A model generated the notes under the pieces. The model did no database searches and was not told the DNA's origin. It worked only from the letters and a program-made list of their open reading frames with translations. Source: Raja brachyura (taxonomy: Eukaryota). From it: a DNA stretch of 64,000 nt. Positions 8,118-61,910 of the stretch are shown here, piece by piece. The translations under genes were made by a program, and so were the position numbers. The stretch's first letter is position 1. The number at the start of each line of letters is the position of its first letter. The DNA lies in the NCBI GenBank assembly GCA_963514005.1, contig OY740816.1, positions 17,794,001 through 17,858,000 of the forward strand, read 5' to 3'.

Positions 8118-8295
8118 ACACAAAGTGCTGGAGTAACTCAGACAGCTTCTCTGGAGAGTATGGATAGATAATGTTTCTGGTCGGGAGCCTTCTTCAGACC
8201 CAACTCAATGTTGCCGATCTACCTCCTTCAGAAATGCTGCCTGAACCACTGAGTTACTCTTTGTGCTTAACGCAAGACTCCAGCCTTTGCAGTTT
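8118..8295. repeat. Palindromic pair of Penelope-pLTR-derived short repeats
   Basis: TGCTGGAGTAACTCAG...GCTTCTCTGGAGA left arm; CTTCAGAAATGCTGCCTGAACCACTGAGTTACTC right arm; hammerhead-like core on the minus strand at 8171-8200. Confidence 0.75.
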
Positions 8296-8589
8296 CTTGG
8301 GTTTCCAACCACCAGTGATAGCTTCCCTTCCCATTATGGGCAATGCTGCCTTTGGTGTCCTCAATGTCTTTTGCCACCAATCCCATATTATTTGTACATT
8401 ACCCTTTGGTGATATCATCGAAAATCACAGTTTTAATTTTCAATTGGAAACACATGGCCCAAGTGTTTTCTGCCCGGCACCGTTTTACTGTTTCTAAGCT
8501 ATCAGAGTTTGTCAGAATCCATGGCTGGGTAAGCAGAATCTTTTTTCAAGTAAATATTGGGAAGATTAAAGCCATGCTTCCGTTTCTTA

Positions 8590-8930
8590 GCTGTTGACTC
8601 CTTCCCTCTCCTGGACATTCATCTGAAAGTGAACACGGCCATTTGCCACTTTGGTTTATTACATGACCCACAGTCGTGTTTCAAGCCATGTGCTGCCATT
8701 CCAGTACTTATATTTCAACTCTGGTAATGTTGCTGTGCGCTGCTATAGTCTTATGCATCTGAAGTCTTATGACTTTGTTATCTCCAGACTCAACAATTCC
8801 AGTGCATGCTTGGCCCCTCTTTTTCAACTCGGCCCAAGCTTAAGGTGTCTGTAACCTTCTTCACATAATTCCATTGAACTTGCTTACCCACTTGGCTCCC
8901 GTTTTTTAAAATCCCTTCCAGGGCTTGACA
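8590..8930 (+). mobile_element. Old L2-like LINE fragment
   Basis: SYDFVISRLNNSSACLA resembles the L2 motif HAFVTSRLDYSNALL. Confidence 0.45.
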
Positions 8931-8936
8931 AATCCT

Positions 8937-9033
8937 GGGGAAACTGCAAAATGCTGAAGTGACTCAGTGGGTCGGGCAGCATCCTGAAGAACATCGCCAG
9001 GTGATGTTTTGGGTCAGGACCGGTCTTCAGACT
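8937..9033 (-). mobile_element. Short Penelope-pLTR-derived insertion with 13-bp direct repeats
   Basis: CTTGACAAATCCT at 8924-8936 and 9034-9046 brackets a unit ACTCAGTGGGTCGGGCAGCATC...GGTGATGTTTTGGGTCAGGACCGGTCTTCAGACT. Confidence 0.75.
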
Positions 9034-9405
9034 CTTGACAAATCCTAACATTCCGATGGCCCTTTAGCACCATATAGTCTTGGATCATTCAAGTGGAAAA
9101 AGGAGATCACAGATTTGTCTCGCGTCTTTATACGACCATCTCACCTCTTTCAGTCCAGATGAGTGGTCTCAACCTGAAATGCCACCATTCTATTTCCCTC
9201 CACCAATGCTGCCTGACTCGCTGAGTTCCTCCAGCAGCCCATTTTCTGCTGCGTTCCTCTTTATTCCCAAATATAATTGCTGCACGATTTAAAGCTACAC
9301 CGTCAAAGCTGAGGCCCTAACTTCTGGATTTCCAAATCATTCAACTTTGCTTCAGAATCTTGCCTACCATTTGGATTGACTTTTGGCTGCTGTCCTTTTC
9401 TTCTT

Positions 9406-9574
9406 GTGTAGGAAGGAACTGCAGATGCTGGAGTAACTTATCAGGTCAGGCAGCATCTCTGGTGAAAAGGAGTAGGTGATGTTTCGGGTCGGAACCCTTC
9501 TTCAGACTCCTTCACCTACTCCTTCTCTCCAGAGATTCTGCCTGACCCGCTGAGTTACTCCAGCATTTTGTGTC
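9406..9574. repeat. Palindromic pair of Penelope-pLTR-derived repeats with hammerhead-like core
   Basis: Arms GCTGGAGTAACTTATCAGGTCAGGCAGCATCTCTGGTGAAAAGGAGTAGGTGA / TCACCTACTCCTTCTCTCCAGAGATTCTGCCTGACCCGCTGAGTTACTCCAGCA; minus strand 9475-9507 reads CTGAAGAAGGGTTCCGACCCGAAACATCACC. Confidence 0.8.
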
Positions 9575-9892
9575 CTTTCTCCTTACTTGGCTTGGTATCA
9601 TTTATGTATTTGGCAACTCTCCTGTAAAATGCTTACGGATGTCTTTGCAACGTTAGATGCGCTATGTATGTTCAGGTCAATCCATTATGGAAATTCTGGG
9701 GGTAAAATGAGAATGTAATGGGACTTTCTGGTTGGGGCAGGACCAAAAGGTGCTGCACTAAGGTGGGCCATCTGTGGACAGGGTAGGGGGACTACTCTAT
9801 GTGTTGCCAAACTTGGGTGGGCGGGAGCTGTATGCAGTATTAGCTCATTCCAGCAGGGTGAATGGGATTGTATTGTAGCTGAGAAACAATAC

Positions 9893-9983
9893 TATTCCTT
9901 CTCTCCAGAGATGCTGCCTGTCCCGCTGAGTTCATCATTTTGTGTCTATCTTCGATTTAAACCAGCATCTGCAGTTCTTTTCA
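9893..9983 (+). mobile_element. Short Penelope-pLTR-derived insertion with 9-bp direct repeats
   Basis: AAACAATAC at 9884-9892 and 9984-9992 flanks TATTCCTTCTCTCCAGAGATGCTGCCTGTCCCGCTGAG...AGCATCTGCAGTTC. Confidence 0.7.
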
Positions 9984-10404: not shown

Positions 10405-10426
10405 GTGTGTGTGTGTGTGTGTGTGT
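10405..10426. repeat. (GT)11 microsatellite
   Basis: Read directly from the sequence. Confidence 0.95.
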
Positions 10427-22460: not shown

Positions 22461-23264
22461 CTGGAAAAGGAGGGTGTTTTAATTAGAATAAATTAGACTC
22501 CACAGGATAGCTGTTCAAATGCTCCATTATGACCAGAAACAGAAAAATGCTTTTTCACACCATAATCACAAAATTTAAAACTCAAAAGATGCACACATTT
22601 CTGAAAATGTTAAGATGTTTCCCCAAAAAATAAATCTGGATTAAGCTAAAATCAGAGCCTCTCATCTAGACAAAAAGTAGAATTCACTCAAACTACTCTA
22701 TTGCATTCCTTCTTGTATGAAGATCAGAACTTGAAGATTTGAGGAAAGGGGTTTCAGACAGCACCCAGAAAAGTAACAAAGCTCTTAAAAAGCTAAAAAC
22801 AAAATAAAACCTAAAGCAGAGGGAACAAAACATATAATCATATGGATTGAGGTAAATATACCCTCCACAATCTGTAAACCATCTCTATTTTTAACATTCA
22901 CACCTTTGAACCCATATTTCTGGCACACGTTGGCTGTGCAACATGCTAGGGCAGAAAATGGAAATGGCACAGAGCAAGATACATACAAAACAAAATCAAA
23001 GTGTCTATTAGAATGCATGTAGTATTTTCAATAAGATAGACGGCAGCATAGATAACAAGAGTATGATCTGATAGCCATTATGGGAATATAGAACGGGAGA
23101 ATGAAGATAATGACAGCACAGTTAGAATGGGAATATAGTTGCAGGGTGACCAAGACTGGGTATTCAATATTCCAAGTGATACCAAAAGGGAGAGGAGGAA
23201 GGGCTTGATGGCTGATCAAATTATCAGAGTGGTGTTGAGTCCTGATACAGAGGCAGTGGATAGT

Positions 23265-23530
23265 TTAGAGATAAAGCATAGAAACAGGCCCTTCAGCCCA
23301 CTGAATCCATGTCGACCATCCACACTAGTTCCATGTTATCCCACTCCCTACACACTAGCGAGCAATTTACAGACCCCAATTAACTTATAAACCTGCACAT
23401 CTTTGGGATGTGGGAGGAAATCCACAAGGTCACAAGGATAACGAGTAAACTCCACACACACAGCACCCAAGGTCAGGGTCAAGCCCAGGTCGCTGTGGGA
23501 CAGCAGCTGTACCAGCAGCACAACTGTGTC
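23265..23530 (-). mobile_element. HE1/V-SINE-like tRNA-derived SINE
   Basis: Central domain GGTGCTGTGTGTGTGGAGTTT...TTCCTCCCACATCCCAAAGATGTGCAGGTTT and CR1-derived 3' tail GGGCCTGTTTCTATGCTTTATCTCTAAAC. Confidence 0.8.
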
Positions 23531-25278: not shown

Positions 25279-25934
25279 CTGGTGAGGAAGCAAAGAACGG
25301 TAAACGAGAAGCCAAGAACAAAGACGGCTACTTTATAATTAGATTTCTGTGTTAATATTGTTTTGAATCTTGTAATTAGTAGATACAAAGTATTCAATTT
25401 CTTTACACATCAAGAAAAGGACCAACCCCAATACTATTTAAAATCACATTATAGAATTGGCCATATTGGAATCTTAGGTGTAGAAATGCTGGACAATATC
25501 TTTAACTACGCCACTCCCAGTTGAGGGCTTTGAGGTACTTGATTCCATTTAGGAGAATAAAATGTACCTTCCATTCTAAAATTAAATTTGTAACCTCTCG
25601 ACAGGTAAACTCGGGCCCAATTTCAGAAACCCATAGAAAGCAAATTCAAGGAAGTACTACATAAATGGAAAAAAAATGTATTTCAGTAATAAATAATTGT
25701 AAACCAGATAAGAATGATTTCCGAGATAAGTGAAGGGGCCTAACTGATGCCAATGTACTTAGAGAGCATTATTTGAAAATCAGGTTCCATGAAAATGCAG
25801 TATTGTTCAAGACCTGAGCACATTAAATCAGCAGCAACAGAGAAAAATAATTGGTTTTCATGGACTTCCTATGTACCTCAAAAGTTACACCAGCCATATA
25901 ACAATCCTGTGCACCACAGAACACCACGTAAAAG

Positions 25935-26118
25935 TGGAGTAACTCAACGGGTTAGGCAGCACCTCTGGAGGTGACAATTTGGGTTGGGTCTACTTCCGGT
26001 CCCAAGACGGGTGCCAATCTGAAATGTCACCAAATCCTCCAGAGATGTTGCCTGACCCCCTGGGTTACTTGAGCACTGTTTTAGGCAAGATTCCAGCATC
26101 TGGAGTTCATTGTGTCTA
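25935..26118. repeat. Palindromic pair of Penelope-pLTR-derived repeats (decayed)
   Basis: GGAGTAACTCAACGGGTTAGGCAGCACCTCTGGAGG / CCTCCAGAGATGTTGCCTGACCCCCTGGGTTACT. Confidence 0.7.
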
Positions 26119-37077: not shown

Positions 37078-39285
37078 CTGAAAGAGTCGCACAGTAAGCA
37101 AGGAATCTGGTCAGTAGGTGGAAAGCATGATGGTACAAGTCTGCCAAGTTGTTGCAGCAGACTAAAAACTAAACAACAGTTTCAGCTAATCACAGAACAT
37201 ATGTGATTTGCAATAAATAGTACTGGCTGAAATGGCCAGCCTCTAACAAACACTTCTAATGCAATTACTAAACTAGAGCAAATGGGACTCTGAAAAGTTT
37301 AACTGACAAACTTCAAAATTCCTTTTTATGGTGCAGGTTCTACAGTTTTGTTTAGGCAGTGCAGTCAGAAGTGTATACACTGCTACATTAGAATGTTGCA
37401 ATACAGTTAACAGCAGAATGGAAAAATCCACCATTCTTTGGATTTTAGCCATTTTAAAGTTATATGCCATGGGGAGGTGATGGCCAGGGAGGTGAAGGAT
37501 GGAAGTGGGTTGTGAGGAATAGAGTGGAGGAAGGTATTACAGAAGCTATGAACTCAATGGCAACCTTAAAATGACAGAACAAAATTTTGACTTCAATATT
37601 ATTACATCATCGAGCAGGTCCATGGGGATATTAATGAAACAGGTCTCACCTTTGCAGCCAACAGAAACAATGGGATTTTTCCACCATGCTACACATTTTA
37701 TGCCAAGTACAAATATCTCTTTAAATATTCCACTAAAGCCCCAATTACATTGCCAATTTCACATCCTGTCTCACACCCCTATTTTAATTGCATCTCCTAA
37801 ATTGATTGCGTATGTTATAATGGATCCAAAACGGCAGAGAAAAGATGTTCAGAGCACAAGCAAGGCCAGACTTGCACCAGTAACTGATCTGATTGTGAAG
37901 CGGGATTGAAACTACGCCAGGGTCTTTGAGCACATGCAGTCCAAGTAACTTGTGGTGTGCACAGCATAGAAACCTTTCAACATTTAGGTCCAACTACACT
38001 ATATACCAATAGTGCAAGTTCCAATTTCAAATTTCAGTCAAATGCACAACAGATAATGAGAAGCCAAATGTGTACTAAAATGTGGAGAAACTGTCACCTT
38101 GCCTCTAACTATCAATGATACAAAATAAAATGTTGAATTTAAATATCTTCATAAATTTATGTTTTCCAACTCTGCAAGACAACAAACCAACAAATACTGA
38201 AGAGTTCCTTAAGACAATTCAGCCTTGTTTGGTAAAGTTTCAATATTTCTTCCAAAATTCATTTAAGTATTTCGCTGAAACGTATTAAAGATTTATAGCC
38301 ATGAAGCATGTTGCAACTGGTTTACAATGTACCAGCTAGAATGCTAAAAATAACTAGCCTACTTCAGTCCCAATACATGAACTGAAGTAAGTTAGTTTTC
38401 CCCATCAAGCTATTCAATTAGATAGTCACACATCTGCATCATATCTTCATCTATCTGCCTTTGTTTCATTGCCCTCAACATACTTGCCTAAGATAACCAT
38501 TGCTATTTAAAAACAGAACGAACCCATCCTATTTTCCTGATGCTCAGAATCTTCTGAATTTCAACTTATTAGTTGATTTCACTCAACTAATTTCTCATCA
38601 GTTTATTCATTTCAGCTGGCATATAACAAGTCCTTACCATGCATTTCAAAAATTGTAAACAAAACTGATGTTCGTGCAATTATTGCAGAAACTAGCAACC
38701 CGTAATTAAAATTTATAGAATACATAATTCAATAAAAATCTGGTTATTCATTTTGAAATAAATTGAAAGCAATTTACTAGTTCAACCGAGAAATTAATCA
38801 GTTTGGTAAAAATATTGATTTTATATATATGGAAATACCAACACAACTTTAATTCTACTGATTCAAAATATAAGATTTGAAATGTTTATGTAATGACCAA
38901 ACAACCAACTGAAACTTATTTAAGTCAAACAACATCAACCCTAAAGGAATTGTAATCCTGTATTTTTTCCAAGCAATTAATTTCTTAATGCTTCCAATAT
39001 TCTTCTACATCATATGACTCGCATGACACACTGAAAATATTACCATTGAAGAGGCAATGAATACATTAACTGTAGATATTAAACACAGCAAGTGTCATAG
39101 TCACAAAAATTGGTTATTTTTCCAGCATTTAAAAGTTTGCCATTAAAACTTCTTTAAGCAACGAAAACTCTCCAAACAAAAATACACTAAGGCAGGGGAA
39201 ATGCCTTCTCGTGAGTGTGATGCCTTTAAAAATAACTTGCGTATTACATTACTCTTCCTGTTTGCTCCAACATTCCAGCAAATAC

Positions 39286-39490: not shown

Positions 39491-40519
39491 CTGAAATTAA
39501 AATATATATTTTTTGGTTAGAAATACAATCTATAGACTTTAGAACACTCTCCAGTACCTGCACATTTTTCCTAAAGCATCGGATCCAAATTTATAAGCAT
39601 ATGTTCACTTCCCATAATGATGCCGAATTATCATTCAAATAACTTGACATTTACTAGATATATTGTAATAACTTAATGTTTCCAACGTGAAACCACTAAT
39701 GGTTCTTTAAGAATAAAATGGAAAACATTGGACTCTCTTAACACAATGACAAATTTAAAACATTGACATGGTCAGCACAAGAACACTAATAAATAGTTCA
39801 TTCAGGTGCCCTGCTTGTTACACTATGCTGACCTGTTAAATCAACAGCACATCTCCTCAAAGCCAACAAATGTATCATTTTTGAGTACGCGAAGCTATGG
39901 CTGCAGAATTCAAAAGAATCATTCTCCTCCGAAAAAAGAAATGTAATCTCTCAGTTCTAACAGCTAACTTTGAGACTGTGATCACTCATTGCAGGCAGCG
40001 TATCAGGGACAACTTAATACCAATGTCATACCCAAATTCACTTTGGCAAAACCCCACCCAAGAGTTTTGTATACTTCAGCAAGATCATCACTTATTTTTC
40101 CAAAACTCAGGAGAACATAGGCACAGTTTGCTTAAACTGAGTTCATAGAACCCCAAGACCCACCACCCCATCAGTCATTCTGGTGCTCATTGCACTCCCG
40201 TTATAGTGTATAGTACATCACGTACAGTCTCGACAGACCCTATACAATTCCAGTAAAATGGTCTTGTTCGCAAACCTTCTTGAAATAAAGGTCAATAGAT
40301 GGTACCTTCCGAACTCCTTGCCGCAATTTCATTTTAATTGTGTACTTAATGTACAAGGACATCTACATCCTTCTAAACACAAATACTAATACTTGTATTC
40401 TCTTATGTTGTAACAAATCACTGTTTAAAATCACCATTTGAACTTTCTACCCATGAAAACCATCTCACATTTTCCCCATATTATAATTCTAGATAAGTAC
40501 AACACGTAAAAGTTTGAAG

Positions 40520-41165
40520 ACGACCAGAAACTTCACCCATTCTTTCTCTCCAGAGATGCTGCCTGTCCCATTGAGTTACTCCAACATTTTGTGTCTATCC
40601 ACAGAAAAAGGCCATTTAGCTCAGCGAGTTCACTGCAACTATCAACAACTCATTTTTACACTAATCTTTTATTGCCCCCACATTCCCATCTGTTCCTCCC
40701 CAAATTGTACTGCTCACCAAATTCTACTGCCTACAGTAGCAGCAATTTATATTAGCCAATTAATCTGCCAACCCATATTTTAGGATGTGGGAGGAAACTG
40801 GAGCACCCACAGAAAACCCACGTTGTTATAATGAGAATGTGCAAACTCCATTTAGATAGCGCCATAAATCAAGATTGAACCTAGGTCTCTGGATAGGCAA
40901 GTCATCAGCTTTACCACATGCACCATGCTGCCACCTTTAGACTTTAGAGATATAGCACGGACACAGGTTGTTCGGCACACCGAGTCTGCAACGACCAGTG
41001 CATCACACTGTACACTAGAACTATCCTACACACTAGGGATAATTTACAATTTTTACCAAAGTCTACAAACCTGTACCTCATTGGAGTGAGGGAGAAAAGC
41101 AGGGCTCCTGGAGGAAACCCACCCAGGCACAATGAGAATGTACAAACTCTGTACAGACAGCACAG
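40520..41165 (-). mobile_element. Cluster: pLTR-derived repeat plus two HE1/V-SINE-like SINEs
   Basis: CTCTCCAGAGATGCTGCCTGTCCCATTGAGTTACTCC at about 40546-40582; SINE bodies GGATGTGGGAGGAAACTGGAGCACC (about 40783) and GAGAATGTACAAACTCTGTACAGACAGCAC (about 41134-41163). Confidence 0.75.
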
Positions 41166-43619: not shown

Positions 43620-44290
43620 ATTGCATTCCAGATTCAGCAGGGAAGTGTAACATCAGGTAGAGCCATGGTGGTAAGTGACTCTAGATAGGGGTGTAGACAG
43701 GAGATCCTATGGCAGCAGTCGAGACTCCAGGATGGTGTGCTAGCGGGCTGGTGCCAGGGTCTAGGATGACTTGGAGCAACTGCATGACATTCTCAAGGGG
43801 GGCTTCCCGTGCCACCAAGGGTAAGATCAGAAAGATTGGGGGAGATGAATGGGCTGTTGAGGAGTTGACGCATGGATTTTGATTTCTGGTCCATTGGGAT
43901 CTCTACAAGAGAGATGGGTTGGACCTTAATCAGAGGGGAACCTGGCAGGCAGGTTCACTAGTTCAACATGGTTAATATTAACACGGTTCAATAATGACCG
44001 GGAATACATTCAAAATGCTGGAGTAACTCAGCGGGACTGGCAGCATCTCTTGAGGGAAAGAAAAGGTGATGTTTCAGGTCGAGACCCTTCTTCGGACTTT
44101 ACTTTACTGGGAATTTGAGTATAAACGATTTAGACAAGGTAGAATTTGTCAAACGGGTTCAGGAAAGTCTCCTCAGGCAATGTGTAGAGGTCAACGCTTG
44201 ACGAAACGTAGGAAACTTAGGAGAGGGGCAAGTGAACATGTGGACAAAGTGTTTATGGATGAGCATTTGAGGACAATGCCCTGTATTTAA
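43620..44290 (+). mobile_element. Decayed CR1 5' region (ORF1 esterase-like) interrupted by a pLTR-derived repeat
   Basis: GCCATGGTGGTAAGTGACTCT (GDS-like) and TACAAGAGAGATGGGTTGGACCTTAAT (DGLHLN-like); pLTR repeat at 44013-44098. Confidence 0.5.
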
Positions 44291-45035: not shown

Positions 45036-45096
45036 CATTATAAACATGTGTTGCCTTTCTGTTGACTGGTTAGCACACAACAAAAGCTTTCCACTG

Positions 45097-45259
45097 AAGA
45101 TAGACAAAAAAAAACTGCATAATTCAGTGGGGTCAGACAGCATCTCCGGAGAAAAGGAATAGGTGATCTTCTCCGAAGATGTTGCCTGACCCACTGAGAT
45201 ACTTCAACATTTTGTTTCTATCTCCAAATTAAACCCGCAATCTGCAGTTCCTTCCTACA
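45097..45259. mobile_element. Palindromic pLTR-derived insertion with 16-bp direct repeats
   Basis: CAAAAGCTTTCCACTG (45081-45096) / CAAAAGCTTTTCACTG (45260-45275); arms TCAGTGGGGTCAGACAGCATCTCCGGAGA / TCTCCGAAGATGTTGCCTGACCCACTGA. Confidence 0.75.
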
Positions 45260-45286
45260 CAAAAGCTTTTCACTGTACCTCGGTAA

Positions 45287-45865
45287 AGGGCCTGTCCCAC
45301 TTTCACGAGGTAATTCATGAATTCTCCCGAGTTTTCCCCACGATTCAAATTTACAGAATGTTCATAACGAGAGCTCCAAAAAGACTACAAAAAGTAGTAA
45401 ACACTTCCCAGTCCATCATCGGCTCTGACCTCCCTACCATCGAGGGGATCTATCGCAGTCGCTGCCTCAAAAAGGCTGATATACCTACTATATTCTGTTG
45501 TGCTGAAACAAAGCAAGAATTTCATTGTCCTATCTGGGACACATGACAATAAACTCTCTTGAATCTTGAAGAGTTTGTAGATATATCCTAGTCGTAGGTT
45601 CTCATGGCATCAGGTAAGTTGGGACGTTTTTTCCAGCCCGATAAAAAAAGTAAATGAATAAAAAAAAAGGTTGGGATTAAAGAAATTGCAAATTTTTACT
45701 CGTAAGGAGGGCATTAAAATAGTAGTGTGAATTCATAGACATACTCGTAGGAGTTCGTGAACATAGTCGTGGAAGGTCGTAGATTACCACGATCTTGATC
45801 TATTTTTTAGGTCCTTTAAACTCGGCAGACGTTTTGAATTAAGTCGTGAAAGTGGGACAGGCCCT
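45287..45865. mobile_element. MITE of the same TIR family as 5583-6105, with a nested Rex-like LINE 3' fragment (about 45372-45570)
   Basis: AGGGCCTGTCCCACTTTCACGA ... TCGTGAAAGTGGGACAGGCCCT; internal GAATTTCATTGTCCTATCTGGGACACATGACAATAAACTCTCTTGAATCTTGAA. Confidence 0.85.
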
Positions 45866-46012
45866 TAAACCAGTGAATCCCAACCAAGCGGGCTCGCGTC
45901 GGAGCCGGGCCCGCGCACACGCCAGGCGTCGGCGGCGCGCACGTCCAGCATAGGCGGCGCGCACGGGCGGGAGCCGGGGGCGCGCGACCCGAACAATCCA
46001 CGCTGATCAGCT

Positions 46013-46667: not shown

Positions 46668-46699
46668 TTTGATTTCGTTAAATTCAAAAAGGCTCTCGC

Positions 46700-46800: not shown

Positions 46801-46985
46801 GTTCAAGATGCGTTGCAGCGTCTAATCTGCATAATGGCATCATTGTATCAAGAAAGGATACAAAGCGCTGTAGGAACTCAGTGGGTCAGGCAGCATCTTT
46901 GGTCTGGAGATAGACTTGGTTCTTGGTCCTCCAAAATATTATAACTGGAGGTGGTGAAGGGAAGGGGTTTAGCCAGAGAGGGTTA

Positions 46986-47290: not shown

Positions 47291-47292
47291 TC

Positions 47293-47648
47293 AACTCAGA
47301 GGGTCAGGCAGCATCTCTAAGGTTGAATCCAACGGGTCAGGCAGCATCTCTAAGGTTGGACTCAGTGTGTCAGGCAGCATCTCAGGAGATGGATTCAGTG
47401 GGTCAAGCAGCATCACTGGAGATGGACTCTCAGCGGGTCTGGCAGCATCTCTGGAGCAGGATCGTACCAGAGATGCTGCCTGTTACTCCTGTGTTTTTGT
47501 GTCGAGCATCTATGGAGAAAGATATTAAGCACTGGAGTAACTCAGCGTGTCAGGCAACCTCTCTGGACAAAGACACAAAGCGCTGCAGTAACTCAGCGAG
47601 TTGGGCAACATCTCTGGATATGGACATAAAATGCTGGAGTAACTCAGA
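47293..47648 (+). repeat. Tandem array of pLTR-derived units (five of about 33 bp, then about 54-bp units)
   Basis: ACTCAG(A/T)GGGTCAGGCAGCATCTCT(AA/GG).. repeated five times at 47293-47457, then GCATCT...GGA...AAG..CTGGAGTAACTCAG units to 47648. Confidence 0.85.
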
Positions 47649-48114
47649 GGTTCACCCAATAATTAAACACAACACTTTATTGAGCGCTTCAGTCTGTGGC
47701 ACCATCCTTGCCTGGTGTACTCTGTTATCATTCATTCCGCTCTCCACTTTTGAGGCAGAACCTTCTATAGATTCATTTAATGGAGGTGATTGCCAATACC
47801 CACGATGGACCGTTTGGAGTCCACTACTTTTGTAATCTCTAATTGAAACAACATTCATTTACGTTGCATCCTTATTGCAAAAATGCGCCATTGTACTATG
47901 CACATTCTTACAGCGTATAAACTTGACAGGAATGTTTTAAGAACATAATAATGCAAGCTGGGTTAGCCTTGCTCTCTTCTGTACCTCAGATTTACTTTTC
48001 CATTTTATCCTTGTAACTCCAAGTGTTTAGAAAGAAAATTCCAAAGGTTTACCTTTCATATGAAGAATTTTCTCTCAACTTTAAATGAGACAACTATTAT
48101 TTTTAAGCTAAATA

Positions 48115-48480
48115 TAGATACAAAAAGCTGGACCAACTCAGCAGGTCAGGTAGCATCTCTGGTGAAAATGGGTAAGTGACGTTTTGGATCAGGACCCTTC
48201 TTCAGATTGTTTGTGGTAGGGAGAGTGGGGCAAAAAATTGGAAGTGAGGGGGAAACAGGACAAATCAGGGCCAGCAACAGATGACCCCAACAAGGAGGTT
48301 CCTGATGCACTGACTGTTGGCTGGAGATAGGTGTGAGCCCAAGGGGGATACATAGTTGTGAACTGACTTTAATGGAGGAAGGGGGAGAGGGAAGGGTTTG
48401 TCGAAGTGACCTAAAGTTAGAGAAATCTGTATATTCATACCCCCACTGGGCTATAAACTGCCCAAGCGAAATATGATTAA
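48115..48480 (-). mobile_element. Penelope-like element 3'/pLTR fragment
   Basis: pLTR repeat at 48115-48207, then ACCTAAAGTTAGAGAAATC..TATTCATAC..CTGGGCTATAAACTGCCCAAGCGAAATATGA homologous to 50507-50569. Confidence 0.7.
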
Positions 48481-48784: not shown

Positions 48785-49394
48785 GTTAGTCTGATCGGGA
48801 TTCTCCTGGAATTGTTCTTTAATGCGCTCATAAAGCTCGCAGTGGTGCAATCGCCAACTATTCGCCAGTATTGTTTTCGATGTCGCACCCACTCCGTGCG
48901 CTGCAAATCCTTTTTTTTTTAAATTTTGCCAGGTTCGCCTGAGTTACAGGCGGGCCTTTCCCCATGTCGCCCGCGGACTGGGTTGAGTTGCCACCAGCGC
49001 CTCATGCGTTAGGCTGCTGCCGCTGTCAATCTACTCGATAGCCAGGCCTACTCTTGGGTGAACGCCTATTCTCTTTTACTCCTGTCGTGTAAAAAGCAAA
49101 CACTAAAATACATGGAAATTTCACCGTCAAGAGAAAGCCGAGTTCCTTTTCATTAAAGGAACCCACCCCCACCCTACTCGTGTTATAATGTGTGTGGCGC
49201 GCGCTTTCCACGTGCGAAATAAATCACTTTCCAGTTTAAATAGCGTGTATAAAAACTTTTTTTTCTGTTCGGGTTCTAGGCCAGATTTGCGTGTGTTAAT
49301 ATCTGTTTTTCAGTGGGTTTGCGAGCGAGCGAGCGGGTGGGCGGTGGGTGGAAAGGGCCCGCGCCCACCTCCCTCCAGCAACCCGCTCGCTTCA

Positions 49395-49412
49395 ACGCCA
49401 CAAAATGGCGGC
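49395..49412 (+). promoter_or_regulatory. YY1-type motif in CpG-rich intron 1 of the plus-strand gene
   Basis: ACGCCACAAAATGGCGGC, identical to the minus-strand copy at 46013-46030. Confidence 0.7.
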
Positions 49413-49584
49413 GCCTCCTTCCCTCCCCCGTCCTGGGCGCGGCCCCGCGCACTCATGCACGCGCGCGGGCACAAGGGGAGGGGGGCGGTGTTACGCGTAG
49501 CGCGCCTTTTTGAAGCGGCCCTGCGGCAATCTCTTTCATTCCGTCTCCTTCTCACACATGGAGGTACAAGCGGAGCTCGTACAA

Positions 49585-49950
49585 GCAAAATGCTGTGGTA
49601 ACTCGGGAGAGAAGGAATGGGCGACATTTCGGGTCGACACTTCTTCAGACAAAGGGGATAGGGAGACTAGGTATATGGAAGGGCAAGGTGAAAACGACAC
49701 GAGTATACACGCGGAACTGCAGATGCTGGGGGGCATGACGAGGCGACGTTTCGGGTAGGGACCTCCAGAGAAGGGTTCAGTGCCCGAAACGTCGCCTATC
49801 CATGTCCTCCGCAGATCTAGACACAAGGAACTGCAGAGACTGTTTTTTAAGTGGATAACAAAGCCAGAAGGGTCCCGACCCGAAACATTGCCTATTCATG
49901 TTCTTCAGAGATGCTGCCTGACCTGCCGAGTTTCTCCAGTACTGTGTATT
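49585..49950. repeat. Cluster of pLTR-derived repeats in inverted orientation
   Basis: Hammerhead-like cores at about 49620-49649 (-), 49741-49760 (-), 49770-49797 (+), 49865-49893 (+); perfect 15-bp inverted repeat at 49741-49755 / 49783-49797. Confidence 0.75.
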
Positions 49951-50310
49951 CTGCAATAATAGGTCCAATATCCAGCAAGGTTTGGACTCCTACACAAAAC
50001 TAACCTCAACTGTGGACTGTCTTTGGGTGCACTGAATACTTTGTTTTTGTTTGCACTAGCATTGGGGATATTAATTTATTACATTTTGGTTTTATATATG
50101 TGGTTACCCGTTTGCTGTTGCACTTGAGGCCACTGCGGAGGCTACAAATCTTGAGTAAAAGTGCTGTAGTAACACAACAGGTCAGGCAGCATCTATGGAA
50201 GGAATAGAAGTTTTGGATCAGGACCCCGCTTACAATTTTTGTCCTGCCTCCCAGCTCTATTTTCCAGCATTCTTTCACCCTATTACAATCAGTGCCTTGA
50301 CCTGAAATGT

Positions 50311-52105
50311 TTAAGAAAGACTGCAGATGCTGGTAAAATCGAAGGTAGACACAAAATGCTGGAGAAACTTGGCGGGTGAGGCAGCATCAATGGAGAGAAG
50401 AAATTGGTGATGTTTCAGGTCGAGACCCTTCTTCAGACTGATGTCAGGGGAGGGGATAGGACAAAGAAAGAATGTATGTGGAGAATGAAGAGAGAGAGCA
50501 ATGACCACCTGAAGTTAGAGAAGTCAATATTCATGCCGCTGGGGTGTAAACTACCCAAGTGAAATATGAGAGCTGATCAGCGAAACGATCGCTGAGCCTG
50601 CGCTTGGTCTCGCCGATGTAGAGACTTTGACACCTGGAACAACGGGTGCAGTAGATGAGGTTGGAGGAGGTGCAAATGAACCTCTACCCCACCTGGAAAG
50701 ACTGTTTGGGTCCTTGTATGGACTCGAGGGGGGAGGTAAAGGAAAGGTGTTCCATCTCCTGTGGTTGCAGGGGAAAGTGCCTGTGGAGGGGTTGGTTTGG
50801 GTGGGAAGAGATGAGTTGACCAGGGAGTTACGGAGTGAATGGCCTCTGTGGAAAGCAGAACGGGGTGGAGATGGGAAGATATGGCCAGTAGCGGGATCCC
50901 TTTGGAGGTGGCGTATTATATGTTGGGGGATTATATGTTGTATACGATGGCTAATGGGGTGGAAGTTGAGGACAGGCGGGACATGCTCCTTGTTACGAGA
51001 GGGGGAGTGAGAGCGGAGCTGCGCGATTTTGAGGAGACCCTAGTGAGAACCCTCATCTATAATGGAAGAGGGGAACCCCCGCTCCCTAAAGAATGCTGGC
51101 TCGAACGGCCTACTCCTGCACCTATTGACTAATGAGGACACCTCCAATGCCGTGGTATGAAAAACTTCATCTTGGGCGCAAATGCGGTGTCGACTGAGGA
51201 ATTGGGAGTATGGTATAGAGTCTTTACAAGAAGAAGGGTGGGAAGAATTGTCGTCAAGATAGCTATGGGTGTCAGGTTTGTAGTAGATGTCGGTCAATAG
51301 TTTGTTTTCCTGTGCTGGAGACGGTGAGATCTAGAAACGGTAGGGAGATGTCGGAGAGGGTCCATGTGAATAAGAGTGCATGATGGGAATTAGTGGTGAA
51401 GTTGATGAAGTCAGTGAGTTTTGCATGGGCCCAGGAGACAGCACTGATGCAGTTGTCTATGAAGCGGAGGTAGAGTTTGGGGATAGGGCCAGTGTACGCC
51501 TGGAACAGGGATTGTTTGACGTACCCTGCAAAGAGGCAGGCATAGCTAGGGCCCATGTGAGTGCCCTTAGCTACGCCTTGGATCTGGAGGAAATGGGAGC
51601 AGTTGAAGGAGAAGTTGTTGTGGGTAACAACCAGCTCCGCTGGGCGGAGGAGAGTATTAGTGGACGGAAATTGGCTGGTTCTGCAGTCGAGGAAGAAATG
51701 GACAGCTTTCAGACCCTCCTGGTGGGGGATGGAGGTATAGATTGACTGGATATCCATATTAAAGATGGGAGAGTGGGGGGCTTGAAAACAGAAGTAATTA
51801 AAGAGACGAAGAGCGTGTGATGCGGCTTGGACGTAGGGAGGGATTGGACCGGGGGGGATAGGATGGCGTAGAGGAATGTGGAAATTAATTTGGTAGGGCA
51901 TGAACACGCAGAAACAATGGGTCTGTGAGGACAGTTCCGCTTGTGGACTTTGGGGAGACAATAAAATTGGGCCGTGCGGGACTGGGGAACGATAAGGTTG
52001 GAGGCTTTAGGGGGCAGAGAACGGGAAGTGATGGAGTCGGTAATAGTGTGATATTAACGCCTGGTGCTTGTCTGTGGGGTCATGGTCCAAGGATAAGTAG
52101 GAGGG
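50311..52105 (-). mobile_element. Penelope-like retroelement (RT + GIY-YIG endonuclease + pLTR), decayed
   Basis: MDIQSIYTSIPHQEGL, QIQGVAKGTHMGPSYACLF, YLRFIDNC, LPFLDL, TDIYYKP..HSYLD..S.HP..CKDSIPYSQF; YIGETKRRLSDRFA at about 50580-50621; terminal repeat with hammerhead-like core at 50406-50440. Confidence 0.9.
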
Positions 52106-52107
52106 GG

Positions 52108-53335
52108 TCAAGTCAAAAGAGTTTATTGTCATGTGTCCCAGATAGGACAATGAAATTCTTGCTTGTTGCAGCACAACAGAATATTGTAAGCAGAAATACA
52201 GAACAGTTCAGGTCAATATACACATAAATGAGCAGATAACGTGCAACAGGCTGTTACAGTTCGGAGTCTGTTGGCGAGTTTAATTGTCTGATGGCTGTGG
52301 GGAAGAAGCTGTTCCTGAACCTGGATGTAACAGATTTCAGGCTCCTGTACCTTCTGCCCGATGGTGGTGGAGAGATGAGTGCGTGGCCAGGATGGTGGGG
52401 AGGTCAGAGCCGATGATGGTCTGGGTACTGGTTACAACTTTTGCATCCTTTTCCACTCCTGGACGCTCAAGTTGCCGGACCAAGCGACGATGCAACCAGT
52501 CAGCATACTCTACTGTGCACCGAGAGCTCCAAGAGAGTGTTCTTTGACATACTGACTCTCCGTAGTCGTCTCAGGAAGTAGATGTGCTAATGTGCTTTCT
52601 TTATAATTGTATCCGTGTGCTGGGACCAGGAAAGCTCTTCGGAAATATGCACGCCCAGGAATTTGAAGTTCTTGACTCTTTCCACCATTGTCCCGTTAAT
52701 GTAAACAGGATTATAGGTTCCTATCCTACCCCTTCCAAAGTCCACAATCAGTTCCTTGGTTTTGCTGGTGTTGAGAGCCAGGTTATTGTGTCGGCACCAT
52801 TTGGTCAATCGGTCGATCTCACTTCTATACTCTGATTCGTCCCACGACAGTGGTGTCGTCGGCAAACTTGATGATGGAGTGCGACTATGTCTGGCTATGC
52901 AGTCATGAATATAGAGTGAGTAAAGCAGAGGGCTGACCACGCAGCCTTGAGGTACTCACGAGGCTGTCCTTGAGGTGCTATCGAGGATGCCACATTTCCA
53001 CCAATACGGACAGACTGGACTGTGGATGAGAAAGTCAAGAATCCAATTGCAGAGGGATGTGCAGATATCTAGATCTCAGAGCTTGGTAACCAGCTTGGAG
53101 GGGATGATTGTATTAAATGCCGAGCTGTAGTCAATGAATAACAGCCTGACATATGAGTTTTTGTTGTCCAAGTGTTCCAAAACGGAGTGGAGAGCCAGTG
53201 AGATCGCATCCACCGTTGATCTGTTATGGCGGTAAGCGAACTGCAGTGGGTCGAGGTAGGAGTTGATATGCGCCATAATCAATCTCTCAAACCACTTCCT
53301 TCACCACAGACGTTAGTGCCACTGGTCGATAACCA
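52108..53335 (-). mobile_element. Rex1/Babar-clade LINE, 5'-truncated, decayed RT
   Basis: [18 protein letters not shown]...[25 protein letters not shown]; SPLLYSLYIHDC; WCRHNNLALNTSKTKELIVDF; FKFLGVHISEELSWS. Confidence 0.9.
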
Positions 53336-53849
53336 TTGTCTGGGAGTTGTTATCTGGCCTCGGGTCAGCTCGCCAGACTACCACGACACCTCCACTGTCG
53401 GCGGGTTTGATGACCAAGTCGGGGTTGCTGCAGAGTGAGCGTAGGGCTGTACGTTCAGGGTGGGGGGAGGTTGGAGTAGGTAAGGGGAGTGGAAAATTTG
53501 AGGTGGCTGATGTCCCAGCGGCAGTTGGATCTGATGTTGCTTGTCCATTCCCTCCTCAAATGTCTGACTGGCGGACTTGCTCACATTTTGTGTTTTGTTG
53601 TTTATTAGTTAGTTCATACCCACAAGATTGTTGCTTTTGACCATTCCCTTAGCATTGCTAAAGCCTCTTGAAGCTTTCCTGAAACATTGGTTTCTGATGT
53701 GAAGATCAATCAAACATTAATGCTCAGCTACTCGGGCACCATATATCGTTTAGTAAACAAGGTGTTGAACGTACTAACATACCCACAGCACACAATGTCA
53801 TGAAGTTCTTGGCAGAATGGTCTCATCACGCTGGAAAGTATTCACGGAT

Positions 53850-54450
53850 ATCCACCAGCTTTCTTTTATGATTATTTTGGCAATTACTTGCACCAAGGGT
53901 CAATTTGCAGCAACCAGTCATCTTTTGAATCTGGGAGGAATTTTGAGCACCTGAAGTAAATCTGTATAGTGACAGGCGAACATGCAAGTTCCGCACAGCA
54001 AGCATCCGAGGTCCGGGTCTCTGGAGCAGTGTTGCCACTCTGATGTCCTTAATTGTTGAGTGTTTTATATATTTTTTAATTATTTGAGATTTATTGGATC
54101 TGTAATTTTAATTTTGCTCTTTCTGCACCTGCTCCTGAACATGCTTGTTCAGTAATGTGGGATCAGGTACTCTCAGGGGAGCCAGGCAGCACAATGGCGC
54201 AGCTGGTAGACTCCGTGCCAGAGACGGGGTTAATTCTGACTGTGTGGAAATGACAGGTTTTCCCTTTGACCGTGGGTTTTCTGCCGGCTGCTCCGGTTTT
54301 CTCTCGCGTTCCAAAGATGTGCTGGGTTGTAAGTTAATTGGCCTTAGTAAGTTGCCTGGTGTGTAGGGAGTGGACTTGAAAGCTGGATGACCAATAGCCA
54401 GCGTGAACGTGGTCGGTCAAAGGGCCTGTTTCCATTCTGTATCTTTTAAT
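53850..54450. mobile_element. Two HE1/V-SINE-like SINEs (decayed minus copy about 53850-54040; plus copy about 54180-54450)
   Basis: GGCAGCACAATGGCGCAGCTGGTAGA (A-box-like head), GCTCCGGTTTTCTCTCGCGTTCCAAAGATGTGC, GGGCCTGTTTCCATTCTGTATCT tail. Confidence 0.7.
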
Positions 54451-57010: not shown

Positions 57011-57440
57011 GAAACCTAGAAAATAGGTGCAGGAGGAGGCCCTTCGAGCCAGCACCGCCATTCATTGTGAACATGGCTGATCGTCCGCTGTCAATAACCT
57101 GTGCCTGCCTTCTCCCCATATCCCTTGCTCCACTAGCCCCTGGAGCTCTATCCAACTCTCTCTAAAATCCATCCAGTGATTTGGCCTCCACTGCCCTCTG
57201 TGGCAGGGAATTCCATAAATTCACAAATCTCTGGGTAAAAAGGTTTTTTCTCGGCTCAGTCTTAAATGACCTCTCCTTTATTCTAAGACAGTGGTCCCTG
57301 GTTCTGGACTCGCCCAACATTGGGAACATTTTACCTGCATCTAGCTTGTCCAGTCCTTTTATAATTTTATGTTTCTATAAGATTTCCCCTCATCCTTCTA
57401 AACTCCAGTGAATACAAGTCTAGTCTGTTCAATCTACAAG
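57010..57440 (-). mobile_element. CR1 LINE 3' end
   Basis: AGAAACCTAGAAAATAGGTGCAGGAG tail; same family as 33820-34086. Confidence 0.8.
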
Positions 57441-57804: not shown

Positions 57805-59020
57805 GCTAATGTTATCCCACTTTTTAAGAAATGCGGGTGAGAGAAAACGGAATTATAGACCAGTTAGCCTGACATCGGTGGTGGGGAAGATGCAGGAGTC
57901 AATTATAAAATATGAAATAGCCGCACATTTGGATAGCAGTAACGGGATCGGTCCAAGTCAGCATTGAATTTGCGAAGGGAAAATCATGCTTGACTAATCT
58001 TCTGGGATTTTTTGAGGATGTAACCAGGAAAATGGACATGGGAGAGCCAGTGGATGTAGTGTATCTGGACTTTCAGAAAGCATTTGATAAGGTCCCACAT
58101 AGGAGATTAGTGGGAAAAATTAGGGCACGTGGTATTGGGGGTGGAGTGCTGACATGGGTAGAAAATTGATTGGCAGACAGGTAACAAAGAGTATGGATTA
58201 ATGGGTCCCTTGCAGAATGGCAGGCAGTGACTGGTGGGGTACCGCAAGGCCCGGTGCTGGGACCGCAGCTATTTGTAATATACATCAATGATTTGGATGA
58301 AGGGCTTCAAAGTAACATAAGCAAATTTGCAGATGACACAAAGATGGCTGGCAGTGTGAACTGAGGAGGATTTTACGAGAATGCAGGGTGACTTTGACAG
58401 GTTGGGGTGTGGGCAGATGCATGGCAGATGAAGTTTAATGTGGAAAAATGTGAGGTTATTCACCTTGGTATCAAAAACAGGAAGGCAGATTGCTATCCAA
58501 ATGACTTCAAGTTGGGACAAGGGGAAGTACAATGGGATCTGGGGGGGTCCTTGTTCATCAGTCTATGTAAGGAAGCATGCAGGTACAGCAGGTAGTGAAG
58601 AAAGCGAATGGTATGTTGGCCCTTATAACAAGAGGAGTCGAATATAGGAGCAAAGACGTCCTGCAGTTGTACAGGGCTCTAGTGAGACCACACCTGGAGT
58701 ATTTTGTGCAGTTTTGGTCCCCCAAATTTGAGGAAGGACATTCTTGCTATTGAGGGAGTTTATCTTGGTTTACAAGATTACTTCCCGGGATGGCGGGACT
58801 GTCATATGCTGAGAGAATGGAGCGGCTGGGCTTGTACACTCGTTTAGAAGGATGAGAGGGGATCTTATTGAAACATATAAGATTGTAAGGCATGTAGGTG
58901 CAGCAGCAAGTGAAGAAAGCAAATGGTATGTTAGCATTAATAGCAAAAGGATTTGAGTATAGGAGCAGGGAGGTTCCACTGCAGTTGTACATGGTTTTGG
59001 TGAGACCACACCTGGAGTAT
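57805..59020 (+). mobile_element. CR1 LINE RT fragment with stops and frameshifts, followed by a short re-duplicated segment
   Basis: [69 protein letters not shown] (present twice: about 58680 and 58998). Confidence 0.9.
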
Positions 59021-61483
59021 GGCCTACACCTGCACCTATTTTCTATGTTTGATGATATTTGCATGCAGGAACTGGAAGCTCATGACCATCTCAATTCCAT
59101 CACCATTGATATAAGCATCCACTAGACCCCACTTCCTGAAGTTGATGACCAATTATTTTGTTTTGCTGATAAGACATATATTCATTCTATATCCCTCCTG
59201 TACTCTCTTGGCGTTGAGGTCTTTCTGCCCAGGTGACTGCCATTCTGATAGTCCATAAAAATGCAGCATCTGTGTTTCATGCATTTGCATTTTGTTTTTA
59301 AATGTAGGTTTAATTGTATTTCTAACTTACAACAAGCACTTTTTATGTTACAGAAAATAATCTCATTCTATTGCACAATCTTTAGGTCACTTTACATTTT
59401 TCACTTGATTATATATAATTATTTTTCTCTGGGTGATAATACTTTACAGATTCAATATGTTATTTCATTGTGTTTTGTATGGAACAATAGTTAAAACACA
59501 TTTCATTGTGTTTTACCTATTGCTTGTCCTTTGGGGGATAGGGTGGGGTGAATAGGATTATATGTCTAATTCAATTGCCAACCCATGCAACTACATCATT
59601 TGGCCAGTGAAAAGAAAAGCTTTGAATTTTTATATAGTTGCCATAAATTGTGATAAGAACGCTGGAGTTCATTGTTAATGAATACATTTCCTCAGTATTT
59701 TTGGCTTCTTCATATGTACAGTTAAATGTGGAAAACAAGGAGTTACAAGAATTTCCTTGCTTTATCAGGTTCTTGTATCTAAGAGTATCTTGCCAGGGAA
59801 CATAAGATTCAGAAGCATTAATGTTGATGCTTCAGTACTAGTATATCATATCCAAAAGGCTTGAAATTGTCAATTCAAAAATACATGGGATTGTCATACC
59901 ATGCTGATTCTTAAGTAGCCTTTACCAATTCTTTGCGACATGGTCTTTGAAAAATGTAAGAAATTGAGGATTTTTTAAGACTATTCTCTTGCACTTTGCT
60001 TTAGACTCTCAGTAAGGATGCCTTGCATGAAGGGACCCACAGTTGCTTGTTCTACTTATTTAATGGTACAGATCCACTCTGGAGAGTGCCATACTGTTTT
60101 GACTTATTATGAAAGATCAGAACAGAAACTTGCAGACTTTTTGTGGCAAGAATTGTCGTACCACGTTTGGCATACTACGTTATCCTGACCATGAAGTTTA
60201 AATGTATGTTCCCATGAACTAACTTGCCATCTATTAGAACTGAAATGCCCATTCCATTATTTAATCACAGTCGAGACATTCTCATAATTGATCTTATAAC
60301 TTGTCTCTGTCCCCTTTCCCCCTCTCTTGCTTTACTCCCATTCTTGCCCCCCTTTGACACTAGTGGAAATTATTTTTGTTGGCAGTCCACCAAGCAATCA
60401 TTCACTGTTTTACTGACCTGTGTAATTGCTGTCCTTTGCCCTCTGACTCGAAACAAGAGCTTGTGTCTATTTTCTATTATGTTTATATGCGGGGTCTCTG
60501 GCACGTCTGAGGGTTGAAAATCATCAGAATGGTGTTTTTTGAAATATCTGGCGTCAGTTTGCTTCTTCTAACTTCAACAGATTTAAATGGAAAATCTTCA
60601 AAGTATCTCTGTTCATGTATTCTCTACTATGCCAATGCAGTTGTGTGAACATGTTTTAATTGTGTGTGGGTAACTTTTGCAGTCATTGCTGCAGGCAGAT
60701 CTACTTACCGGAGAGAAAAACGTGTGTCTCTTCCTGTATATTCATACATGGTATTTTCCCTCTTGTCACATTCTGCTCCCCAATTTATAGATTTATATCA
60801 TTTATTGGGGTCAGTTTTTATCGGGTCTGCAATAGCAGCTTACCATTCATATTCGATATTCAATATAAAGTTCTATATTTAACTTTCTTGAAATTGCTCC
60901 TGTAATTTATTTTTCGCTGCTATGTGGTTATCTTCAATATATTTGAATTGTTCTAGTAATAAAGTATCTAATTTGTGATTTCTTATGAAGGTAAAGGCTT
61001 GTCACCCCTTACCACCCCCTACTTTTTTAATCTTATGTCCCAGTGTACTACTTATCAGACATACAGGACCACCCTAAAGGTTTAAATAACATTGATGTGA
61101 TAAACACCACAGATCAAGATAACCATCCAGTTAATTATGTTCACCTCATCACAAAATGCATTGCAAAAGGCACAAAACTATCTGGATGAGTAGGTGCTGG
61201 GAATTTTGTGGCCACCATATCTATTATATAGATATACGAGTTGTGTAATTAAATTGAAGATCATCATGAATTTACCAGTGGTTTTCACTGGTTCTGTTTT
61301 TAAAAAAATGTTATTTGACGACCGCCTCCAAGTGTTCATTGGCTAGACTTGCATGAACAGTGCTCATCTGAAGAAACAGTTGTACCCTGGAATTGTATCC
61401 TAATGTGGAGGAACATAAGTTGCTTTTTTATGTCATTAGTTGATCTAACCAACACAATTATTGTCTGATTCCGTTTCTTTTAG

Positions 61484-61531
61484 AGTACGGAGAGGATGAT
61501 TCTTGGAACGCAGGCGGAGACGATGGTCAAG
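61484..61531 (+). CDS. AKAP8: AKAP8-like paralog, coding exon 2
   Basis: 48 nt, phase 1-1, TTTCTTTTAG/GTGAAT; YGEDDSWNAGGDDGQ, homologous to 43030-43077. Confidence 0.85.
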
Positions 61532-61734
61532 GTGAATATCTTTTGCATTTTTATTAATAAGATCTAGCATGTGGGCTTAATGGGGTCAGAATTGTTCTCT
61601 TTAAAATATTTTACCTGCATAATACATTATGTATTGCATTTGAAGCAATATGATGTGAATGTAAAGTATTTTGTACAGCTCTTAATTCAGTCAACCGAGC
61701 TAATGAAGATATTCAAATTTGTAATGAAAGAGGC

Positions 61735-61910
61735 AAAGTGGTAAGCAGGTCAGTCATCATCTCTGGAGAACATGGATAGGTGATGTTTTGGTTTGGGGAC
61801 CAACCAGATGTGCCTGACAGAATGAAGAAGGATCATGACTGAAAAAGTTGCCTATTCATGTTCTCCAGAGATGCTGCCTGACCTGCTGAGATACCCAGCA
61901 CTTTGTGTGT
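61735..61910. repeat. Palindromic pair of pLTR-derived repeats (decayed)
   Basis: AGCAGGTCAGTCATCATCTCTGGAGAACATGGATAGG / CCTATTCATGTTCTCCAGAGATGCTGCCTGACCTGCT. Confidence 0.75.

Follow-up and report, generated by a model that had tools for sequence, protein, structure and literature searches.

Minimal hammerheads in the ends of metazoan Penelope-like elements (PLEs), the pseudo-LTRs or pLTRs, were described in 2014 (Cervera and De la Pena 2014, PMC4209133). They combine a type I core with an additional unpaired nucleotide separating positions 9 and 10.1, a G10.1-C11.1 pair and a palindromic 15.2-16.2, and they lack a helix III loop; most are single and scattered, probably deriving from truncated PLEs, with some opposite-strand pairs. 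For EN+ PLE insertions (Craig et al. 2021, PMC8557442; the 2013 Adineta Penelope paper, PMC3846280), inverted 5'-truncated copies, set head-to-head at the 5' end, and an optional tail of 30-40 bp on one end are standard features, and some target-site duplications and solo pLTRs occur as well. In Poseidon PAc of Anolis (Frangieh et al. 2024, PMC11167929), the pLTR hammerhead is followed by two RT start sites whose end points bound the tail; both strands are extended, cleavage needs protein and activity was shown in vitro. Non-LTR retrozymes are short, non-coding and related to pLTRs and carry a type I hammerhead; their definition requires units in head-to-tail arrays, with hammerheads of the canonical type and circular RNAs (PMC7229834; bioRxiv 10.64898/2026.07.22.740005). 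A canonical type I with helix III belongs to the 2020 definition (PMC7229834), whereas the 2026 preprint accepts minimal hammerheads too.

The window analysed here, a 64-kb stretch of the Raja brachyura genome, contains a dispersed repeat of this known kind. It is probable that the repeats are decayed hammerhead-bearing pLTRs of Penelope-like retrotransposons and that the scattered copies are short insertion products of the elements' own enzymes, predicted to be inactive. The repeat shares all of the above features with the minimal hammerheads of PMC4209133, except that its helix I has 2 contiguous bp as against 4-5 bp in their Schistosoma families; it is a cartilaginous-fish example of the published pattern, and no shark or skate term occurs in the two supplement files of that study that were searched. 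The features listed for EN+ PLE insertions recur as well, but in the window the shortest products prevail, many of them beginning at the hammerhead's initial bases. As in PAc, a pLTR hammerhead is followed by two end points bounding a tail; in PAc the ORF begins within stem II. The retrozyme-like label, under which the first-pass annotation had placed the repeat, is not supported: its copies are short, non-coding and pLTR-related with a type I hammerhead, like retrozymes, but they are single or head-to-head and bear a minimal core.

Searching the window with an iterated profile that was seeded from the end of the element gave 31 matches at E<1e-3 and 34 at E<0.1, and no match at E<0.1 in six control sequences (the reversed window and five shuffles). 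Every place at which the repeat had been reported carries a profile match (13/13). The 24 dispersed matches cover 2061 bases (3.2% of the window); outside these are a weak match at 6191 and nine sub-fragments of a minus-strand tandem patch of 33- and 51-bp repeats at 47293..47654, which is devoid of the hammerhead core. The repeat has no long ORF, and no match was found in viral contigs. Short copies grade in length up to ORF-bearing copies within the window. Other copies in the window are two solo copies on the plus strand, one decayed (9157..9237) and one with stem II deleted (40512..40606), a 3' half alone at 46848..46902 (minus strand) and a cluster of five decayed copies at 49580..50232, including a head-to-head pair at 49726-49816.

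Assignment of the repeat to a Penelope pLTR, as originally proposed, holds: it terminates ORF-bearing copies on the same strand, twice. The larger of these is a broken, 5'-truncated element on the minus strand (about 50306..53529), in which a single ORF encodes a PLE-type RT followed by GIY-YIG and is interrupted by frameshifts and stops. Elasmobranch proteins match it by tblastn at 52108-51130 (E 2.7e-84), 53526-53364 (E 2.5e-11) and 50683-50570 (E 1.1e-8); the Pfam matches to RVT_1 (E 0.0016) and GIY-YIG (E 0.042) are both below cut-off. The element had been placed at 50311-52105, and its repeat end is correct, but it does not stop at 52105: an unrelated non-LTR RT fragment, another LINE, is inserted on the minus strand at 52109..53336 (RVT_1 E 4.3e-7), and the Penelope reading frame resumes across it at 53337-53529. 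The linker mark of Neptune, CX2-5CxxC before GIY-YIG, is present in the frame translations in degenerate form alone. The terminal repeat with its tail lies at 50306..50439 on the minus strand, and its hammerhead core (50409-50436) has changes at two CpG sites (11.1 and 16.2). At the 5' truncation point a weak inverted copy of the repeat, likely an inverted pLTR, is found on the plus strand (53535..53595, E 0.035); no target-site duplication was found for the whole unit including this copy. The second 5'-truncated copy (48105..48476, minus strand) joins the end of the ORF to a 3' UTR of its own, about 200 nt long, and then to the repeat with G12 changed; between its 48476-48409 segment and 50569-50507 the identity is 79% (E 6.5e-10).

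The minimal type I core CUGANGA ... GAAA ... UH is kept by the majority of the family in the window, and the loopless palindromic stem III (ACGU) is present, both as claimed beforehand. In majority-letter counts, which include one misaligned row, the 5' part of the core is represented by C3 in 9/13, U4 in 8/14, G5 in 10/14, A6 in 12/14, G8 in 12/14 and A9 in 13/14 rows, and the 3' part by G12 in 12/19, A13 in 18/20, A14 in 20/20, A15.1 in 19/20, U16.1 in 17/21 and H17 in 19/21. Of 20 copies, nine have G at position 16.2, another nine have A and two have T; all four public contig sets have G as the majority there (51-68% of summed depth, window position 50411). The palindrome at 15.2-16.2 reads CG in 3, TG in 5 and CA in 8 of 20 copies, variants that are CpG decay of CG. 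Helix II is 4 bp long in the majority sequence and likewise in 7 of 14 rows, C11.1 occurs in 11 of 18, and both the unpaired base between 9 and 10.1 and the G10.1-C11.1 pair are present. No copy is fully intact (0 of 14 spanning the core), in agreement with the earlier caveat; all 11 invariant letters occur in 3 of the 14, each with a C-A mismatch in the palindrome. Three strings had been quoted as examples of the core, and that at 9478-9505 is exact while the other two are one base off (correctly 50409-50436 and 48178-48205). The statement that most deviations are of CpG type fails, with just 32 of 94 changes at positions 4-31 being so (22 of 23 rows, the misaligned row at 49580 being excluded), although changes are more frequent at CpG columns (32 of CpG type in 105 letters versus 52 changes in 327). 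Selection on the copies was considered and rejected: identity at non-CpG letters is 128/144 in the core versus 309/363 at positions 50-66, a difference too small to be read so.

Stem I pairing, a further expectation, is weak, 2 bp at most: two of the three helix I pairs form in 8 of 14 rows and never all three. A younger subfamily may have a longer helix I, or the helix may extend distally by pairing with the conserved CTGAG downstream; few window copies carry upstream sequence. When a double hammerhead is imposed, its energy is 19.2 kcal/mol higher than that of the minimum-energy fold, in a calculation that ignores tertiary and protein effects. The Rfam search gave six matches at E<=5, all under thresholds and none of them a hammerhead.

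The same core is found in metagenomes from other organisms, where a PLE protein match is present at 14 of 120 loci, in 14/14 upstream and on the same strand, and where the loci with two matches are head-to-head in 6/6 cases; these loci represent a few families rather than independent samples, and the search pattern presupposes the core. Helix I reaches at least 3 bp in 98 of the 126 metagenome matches. Past the core, none of the 120 loci is similar to the repeat of the window, and no intact elasmobranch copy is among them.

Adjacent copies in the window are arranged head-to-head in 6/6 pairs and never in tandem; among 20000 random placements, which ignore clustering, none reached six head-to-head pairs and the maximum was three. 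By reading of the alignments, 4 of the 6 pairs carry the tail on one arm but not on the other, for example on the plus arm of the pair at 8106..8308 and on the minus arm of that at 9404..9577, which includes the best-kept core (9478-9505, the palindrome alone broken). The 3' ends fall into two classes, at model positions 84-104 in 14 of 24 copies and 113-117 in 8 of 24. These classes coincide with peaks at 50353 and 50320 in all four runs of the public contig sets, among the loose ends listed (24 of 3739; the listings also gave 40 substitution rows out of 90 and 15 joints out of 473, and include neither position 11.1 at 50417 nor the cut site at 50408); each run has 73,729-97,602 aligned contigs, which are not copy counts, and the greater depth of the terminal repeat over the ORF is likewise not a copy number. 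At the 5' side, 13 of 24 matches begin at model 1-6, where three extend into UTR and the model edge favours such starts, and 11 of 24 begin further inside, at model 8-47. Among the loose ends listed, an accumulation at 50439 is seen in three of the four runs (566-694 contigs, agreement 0.31).

Target-site duplications clearly above chance flank 2 of 15 units and exceed all 300 null pairs. One is an exact 13-bp duplication (8924-8936 = 9034-9046) around the 97-bp minus-strand solo copy at 8937..9033, which starts exactly at the hammerhead 5' end; the other, of 17 bp with one mismatch (45080-45096 / 45259-45275), flanks the head-to-head pair at 45097..45258, which lacks the 5' half of the core. 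In 11 of the 15 units the score was at most 7 or nothing, within the null. The 8-bp flanking repeat of the 9404..9577 pair does not stand out clearly from chance; for the 9-bp repeat around the coreless, tailed solo copy at 9893..9983 (plus strand), 5 of 300 null pairs match the score. Insertion by Penelope proteins, as the first-pass annotation had suggested, is likely in view of the two duplications.

From published work on these elements, we propose that the endonuclease would nick the DNA and that the RT would begin either about 95 or about 130 nt beyond the start of the hammerhead, so that the ends lack or include the tail. Copying would usually halt early, generating short copies, and extension of both nicked strands, or fold-back, may give the head-to-head pairs. 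In a parent that is still active, hammerhead cleavage after GUC would take place in a tandem dimer only, probably with protein help; single and inverted copies would have no same-strand partner for such a dimer. Against this explanation are the few clear duplications (2/15), with none for the full unit, and the weakness of the inverted copy at 53535 (E 0.035).

The clustering of 5' ends at the hammerhead start is not predicted by pure random truncation and could reflect a short run-off or SINE-like RNA. If the 5'-end pile-up marked a transcription start in the pLTR, every transcript would carry a short run-off template, since the RT start lies downstream of the transcript 5' end; internal RT initiation at about 95-130 nt would give run-off copies of 97-135 bp, and solo copies that keep the start site and the RT sites could be amplified anew, as a SINE-like family dependent on polymerase II and on Penelope. 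We regard this extended reading as improbable, at about one chance among several; no publication stating it was found in a literature search at the level of listings or in the cited papers. If true, it would explain the flood of very short, duplication-flanked, head-to-head copies in elasmobranch genomes, and the short copies would document internal RT initiation and both-strand priming in the genome, which bears on the transposition cycle of Penelope. Somewhat less probable still is that the short copies as such constitute a Penelope-dependent SINE-like family, transcribed from the hammerhead 5' end, carrying the RT start sites and recopied in trans. The sharp 5' boundary fits this, with the 8937-9033 insertion beginning there and its duplication abutting, as do the loose-end peak at 50439 and at least two sequence variants downstream of the core. 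TCAGT at this boundary resembles an initiator. Penelope promoters have been located in the pLTR (PMC2377424), and pLTRs suffice for mobilisation in trans (PMC3846280). However, the same sharp start is also expected at the point where an autonomous transcript begins, 11 of 24 matches start internally, ORF-linked copies bear the same repeat, and the variants may belong to distinct autonomous subfamilies; the copy at 48.2 kb has a UTR of its own.

Much less plausible is a non-LTR retrozyme, whose tandem hammerhead units would self-cleave, circularise and reinsert as arrays, with the window copies as monomer offspring. Retrozymes do derive from pLTRs and were found in the one chondrichthyan genome sampled (bioRxiv 10.64898/2026.07.22.740005), and rare head-to-tail joints of a 102-nt unit are seen in 3-8 contigs per run among the joints listed. 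But there is no tandem hammerhead unit among the 24 dispersed copies, the sole tandem patch being coreless, and the absence of a head-to-tail hammerhead array in the window places the repeat outside the definition of non-LTR retrozymes. Furthermore, the core is minimal and not canonical, with a loopless helix III and no Rfam hammerhead match; its 2-bp stem I and the energy cost of the double hammerhead argue the same way, and the unit of 97-134 nt falls below the 150-450 bp given for retrozyme repeats (PMC7229834). The least credible alternative, that the pairs are MITE-like DNA elements or that solo copies arose by pLTR-pLTR recombination, with no retrotransposition of short pieces, draws on the long hairpins into which the pairs fold (z -3.4 to -11.5) and on the recombination suggested for some rotifer solo pLTRs (PMC3846280), but is largely refuted by arm lengths and junctions that differ in every pair, so that the pairs are not copies of one palindromic master, and is further opposed by the duplications of 13-17 bp and by the lack, in most copies, of the upstream UTR that partial-tandem recombination would retain.

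Matches of this type should be annotated as Penelope ends, and not as retrozymes or as working intronic ribozymes. Head-to-head pairs lie in an intron of a minus-strand AKAP8-like gene (25911..26118) and in an intron of a plus-strand AKAP8-like gene (61722..61917), and an intronic solo copy on the minus strand (43997..44098) is in the sense of its host gene and has U4 changed. Cleavage of host pre-mRNA by the sense intronic copies was considered and rejected, because those copies are either changed in the core or coreless.

An iterated profile search seeded on the element end, with the reversed window and five shuffles as controls, gave 31 matches in the 64-kb window at E<1e-3, rising to 34 at E<0.1, and none in the reversed window or in any of the five shuffles. 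All 13 sites at which the first-pass annotation had placed the repeat are profile matches; the three core strings it quoted are likewise found in the window, two of them displaced by one base. Twenty-four matches are dispersed, and a further nine lie within a minisatellite-like tandem patch (47293-47654), whose 33- and 51-bp units are sub-fragments of the middle part of the Penelope end and lack the hammerhead core. One inverted piece occurs within that patch (47467-47510). The column majority of the repeat reads CUGAAGA, then one additional A, a helix II of 4 bp, GAAA, the ACGU palindrome and a C at the cut site (numbering as in PMC4209133). A G lost at 50411 in the element's own copy is restored by the majority in four public contig sets (51-68% of depth). 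The statement that no copy is intact is borne out by the 14 core-spanning rows of the window, three of which retain all 11 invariant letters yet carry a C-A mismatch in the palindrome. CpG-type changes, said to be most of the deviations, are enriched but account for only 32 of 94, a tally that leaves out one misaligned row. An Rfam search of the window reported no hammerhead, as expected because the minimal form lacks helix III.

The window repeat belongs to an already described kind, the minimal hammerhead in the end of Penelope-like elements (PLEs); PMC4209133 described such hammerheads in 2014 as widespread single motifs, probably from truncated elements. Among the 15 of 22 papers listed by a literature search on hammerhead ribozymes and sharks, no title was on shark elements; PMC6155905 mentions sharks once, in connection with the name, and the available part of PMC12602865 adds nothing on shark elements. 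Two supplement files of PMC4209133, with one further file outside that search, contain no shark term, and the exact window family may therefore be unreported, although supplements of a 2026 preprint (bioRxiv 2026.07.22.740005) may list it.

Searches with elasmobranch proteins (tblastn) located a broken reverse transcriptase (RT) at 52108-51130, a GIY-YIG piece at 50683-50570 and a continuation of the Penelope ORF at 53526-53364, past a non-LTR RT fragment (LINE, about 52109-53336) inserted cleanly into it. The earlier description of an element at 50311-52105 ending in the repeat thus stands in its link to RT and GIY-YIG, but not in its stop at 52105. The Neptune-type linker ahead of GIY-YIG is degenerate, and a weak inverted repeat copy (53535-53595; E 0.035) lies exactly at the Penelope 5' break. 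In a second ORF-linked copy (48105-48476) the ORF end is 79% identical (E 6.5e-10) and the UTR differs. Copy lengths thus range from about 55 bp through 97 bp and 370 bp up to about 2 kb. Ends related to the inserted LINE occur near 465-900 and 45389-45563; a short piece of another repeat lies in the Penelope ORF at about 51100-51130 (window 51100-51140) and also at 33822-33936 and 57022-57123.

The short copies have the features described for PLE insertions. All six adjacent pairs (gap <=25) are head-to-head, whereas none of 20000 random placements reached six, in a comparison that takes no account of clustering; the junctions differ in every pair, and by our reading the tail is confined to one arm in four of the six. 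The 3' ends fall at model positions 84-104 in 14 of 24 copies and at 113-117 in eight, and loose-end peaks at 50353 and 50320 agree with these two classes in all four runs (among the 24 of 3739 rows listed). Exact 13-bp and once-mismatched 17-bp target-site duplications flank 8937-9033 and 45097-45258, each above all 300 null pairs; of the 15 units tested, two more have borderline duplications (9 and 8 bp) and 11, the full element among them, show none. In published accounts, PLE insertions carry a 5'-truncated copy in inverted orientation and, at one of their ends, a tail of 30-40 bp (PMC8557442; PMC8969392); head-to-head palindromes and solo pLTRs are reported as well (PMC3846280). The repeat sits at the ORF end, its copies have either of two 3' ends, form head-to-head pairs, are in some cases flanked by duplications and have decayed; from this we infer that the PLE endonuclease and RT produced these insertions. 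In an anole element (PMC11167929), the tail is delimited by two internal RT start sites, cutting and extension take place on both strands of the DNA, and the hammerhead, which needs protein in order to cleave, is dispensable for insertion. A pair of RT start sites would likewise account for the two classes of 3' end, and the head-to-head pairs would follow from fold-back or from extension on both strands. In PMC4209133, minimal hammerheads showed no cleavage as single units and weak cleavage as dimers, so we predict that the solo and inverted copies of the window, mutated as they are, have no activity.

The clustering of 5' ends is not what random truncation would give, and it counts against this account of the insertions: 13 of 24 matches start at model 1-6, although the model edge favours such starts, and three run on into a UTR. 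At 50439, in three of four runs, between 566 and 694 contigs per run pass into dissimilar, AT-rich sequence (among the 24 of 3739 rows listed). This 5' boundary, at the hammerhead start, resembles an initiator. Penelope promoters reside in the pLTR (PMC2377424), and the short copies may thus be run-off products from transcript 5' ends, the transcripts possibly coming from the solo copies themselves. The repeat would then be the non-autonomous family of the first-pass annotation in a SINE-like form, which we regard as unlikely.

Its designation as retrozyme-like is not supported, as no head-to-tail array of hammerhead units exists in the 64-kb window and, of the joints listed, those that link copies of the 102-nt unit head to tail come from no more than 3-8 contigs per run. 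PMC7229834 describes non-LTR retrozymes as repeats of 150-450 bp arranged head-to-tail, which carry canonical hammerheads and give circRNAs; the preprint (bioRxiv 2026.07.22.740005) requires two consecutive units, traces retrozymes back to pLTRs and reports some in the sole chondrichthyan sampled. Hammerhead-only head-to-tail duplications of 37-38 nt (frame 50406-50443) appear in 1-3 contigs per run among the joints listed, and would be natural minimal dimers.

A core-pattern scan of metagenome loci gave at least 126 matches in at least 120 loci, none of those listed resembling the window repeat downstream of the core. A PLE protein match is present in 14 of 120 loci listed, always on the same strand and upstream of the core, and all six two-match loci are head-to-head among the matches listed; motif and geometry are therefore general. 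Helix I has at least three contiguous pairs in 98 of the 126 matches listed, with pair types varying between families; it is shorter in the window repeat, where 8 of 14 rows have two pairs and no row has three. Folding of the repeat majority gave probabilities of 0.16-0.19 for helix II and 0.0 for helix I, and a forced double hammerhead lay 19.2 kcal/mol above the energy minimum. The calculation took its upstream bases from one decayed copy and ignored tertiary contacts; with that proviso, its values make activity of a parent less likely.

The 64-kb sequence comes from an elasmobranch: AKAP8-like proteins of rays and sharks match an exon at 36579-37100 at 92-95%. Two AKAP8-like paralogues are divergently oriented; the minus-strand gene spans 21960-46667, with exons located from 43081 down to 21960, and the plus-strand gene 61483-63607, with exons from 61483 onward. 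Introns of both house several repeat copies, and the GC-rich sequence around 49300-49560 is a possible promoter for the gene on the minus strand. Another LINE with RT (1319-3718, minus strand; RVT_1 E 9.9e-16) is broken into several frames, with related fragments near 58245-59020. Inverted arms of 56 nt, spaced 483 nt (45279-45873), are possibly a MITE, and a second dispersed short repeat family, SINE-like and on both strands, occurs at 23262-23430, 31495, 40941, 42554, 44779 and 54260-54440.
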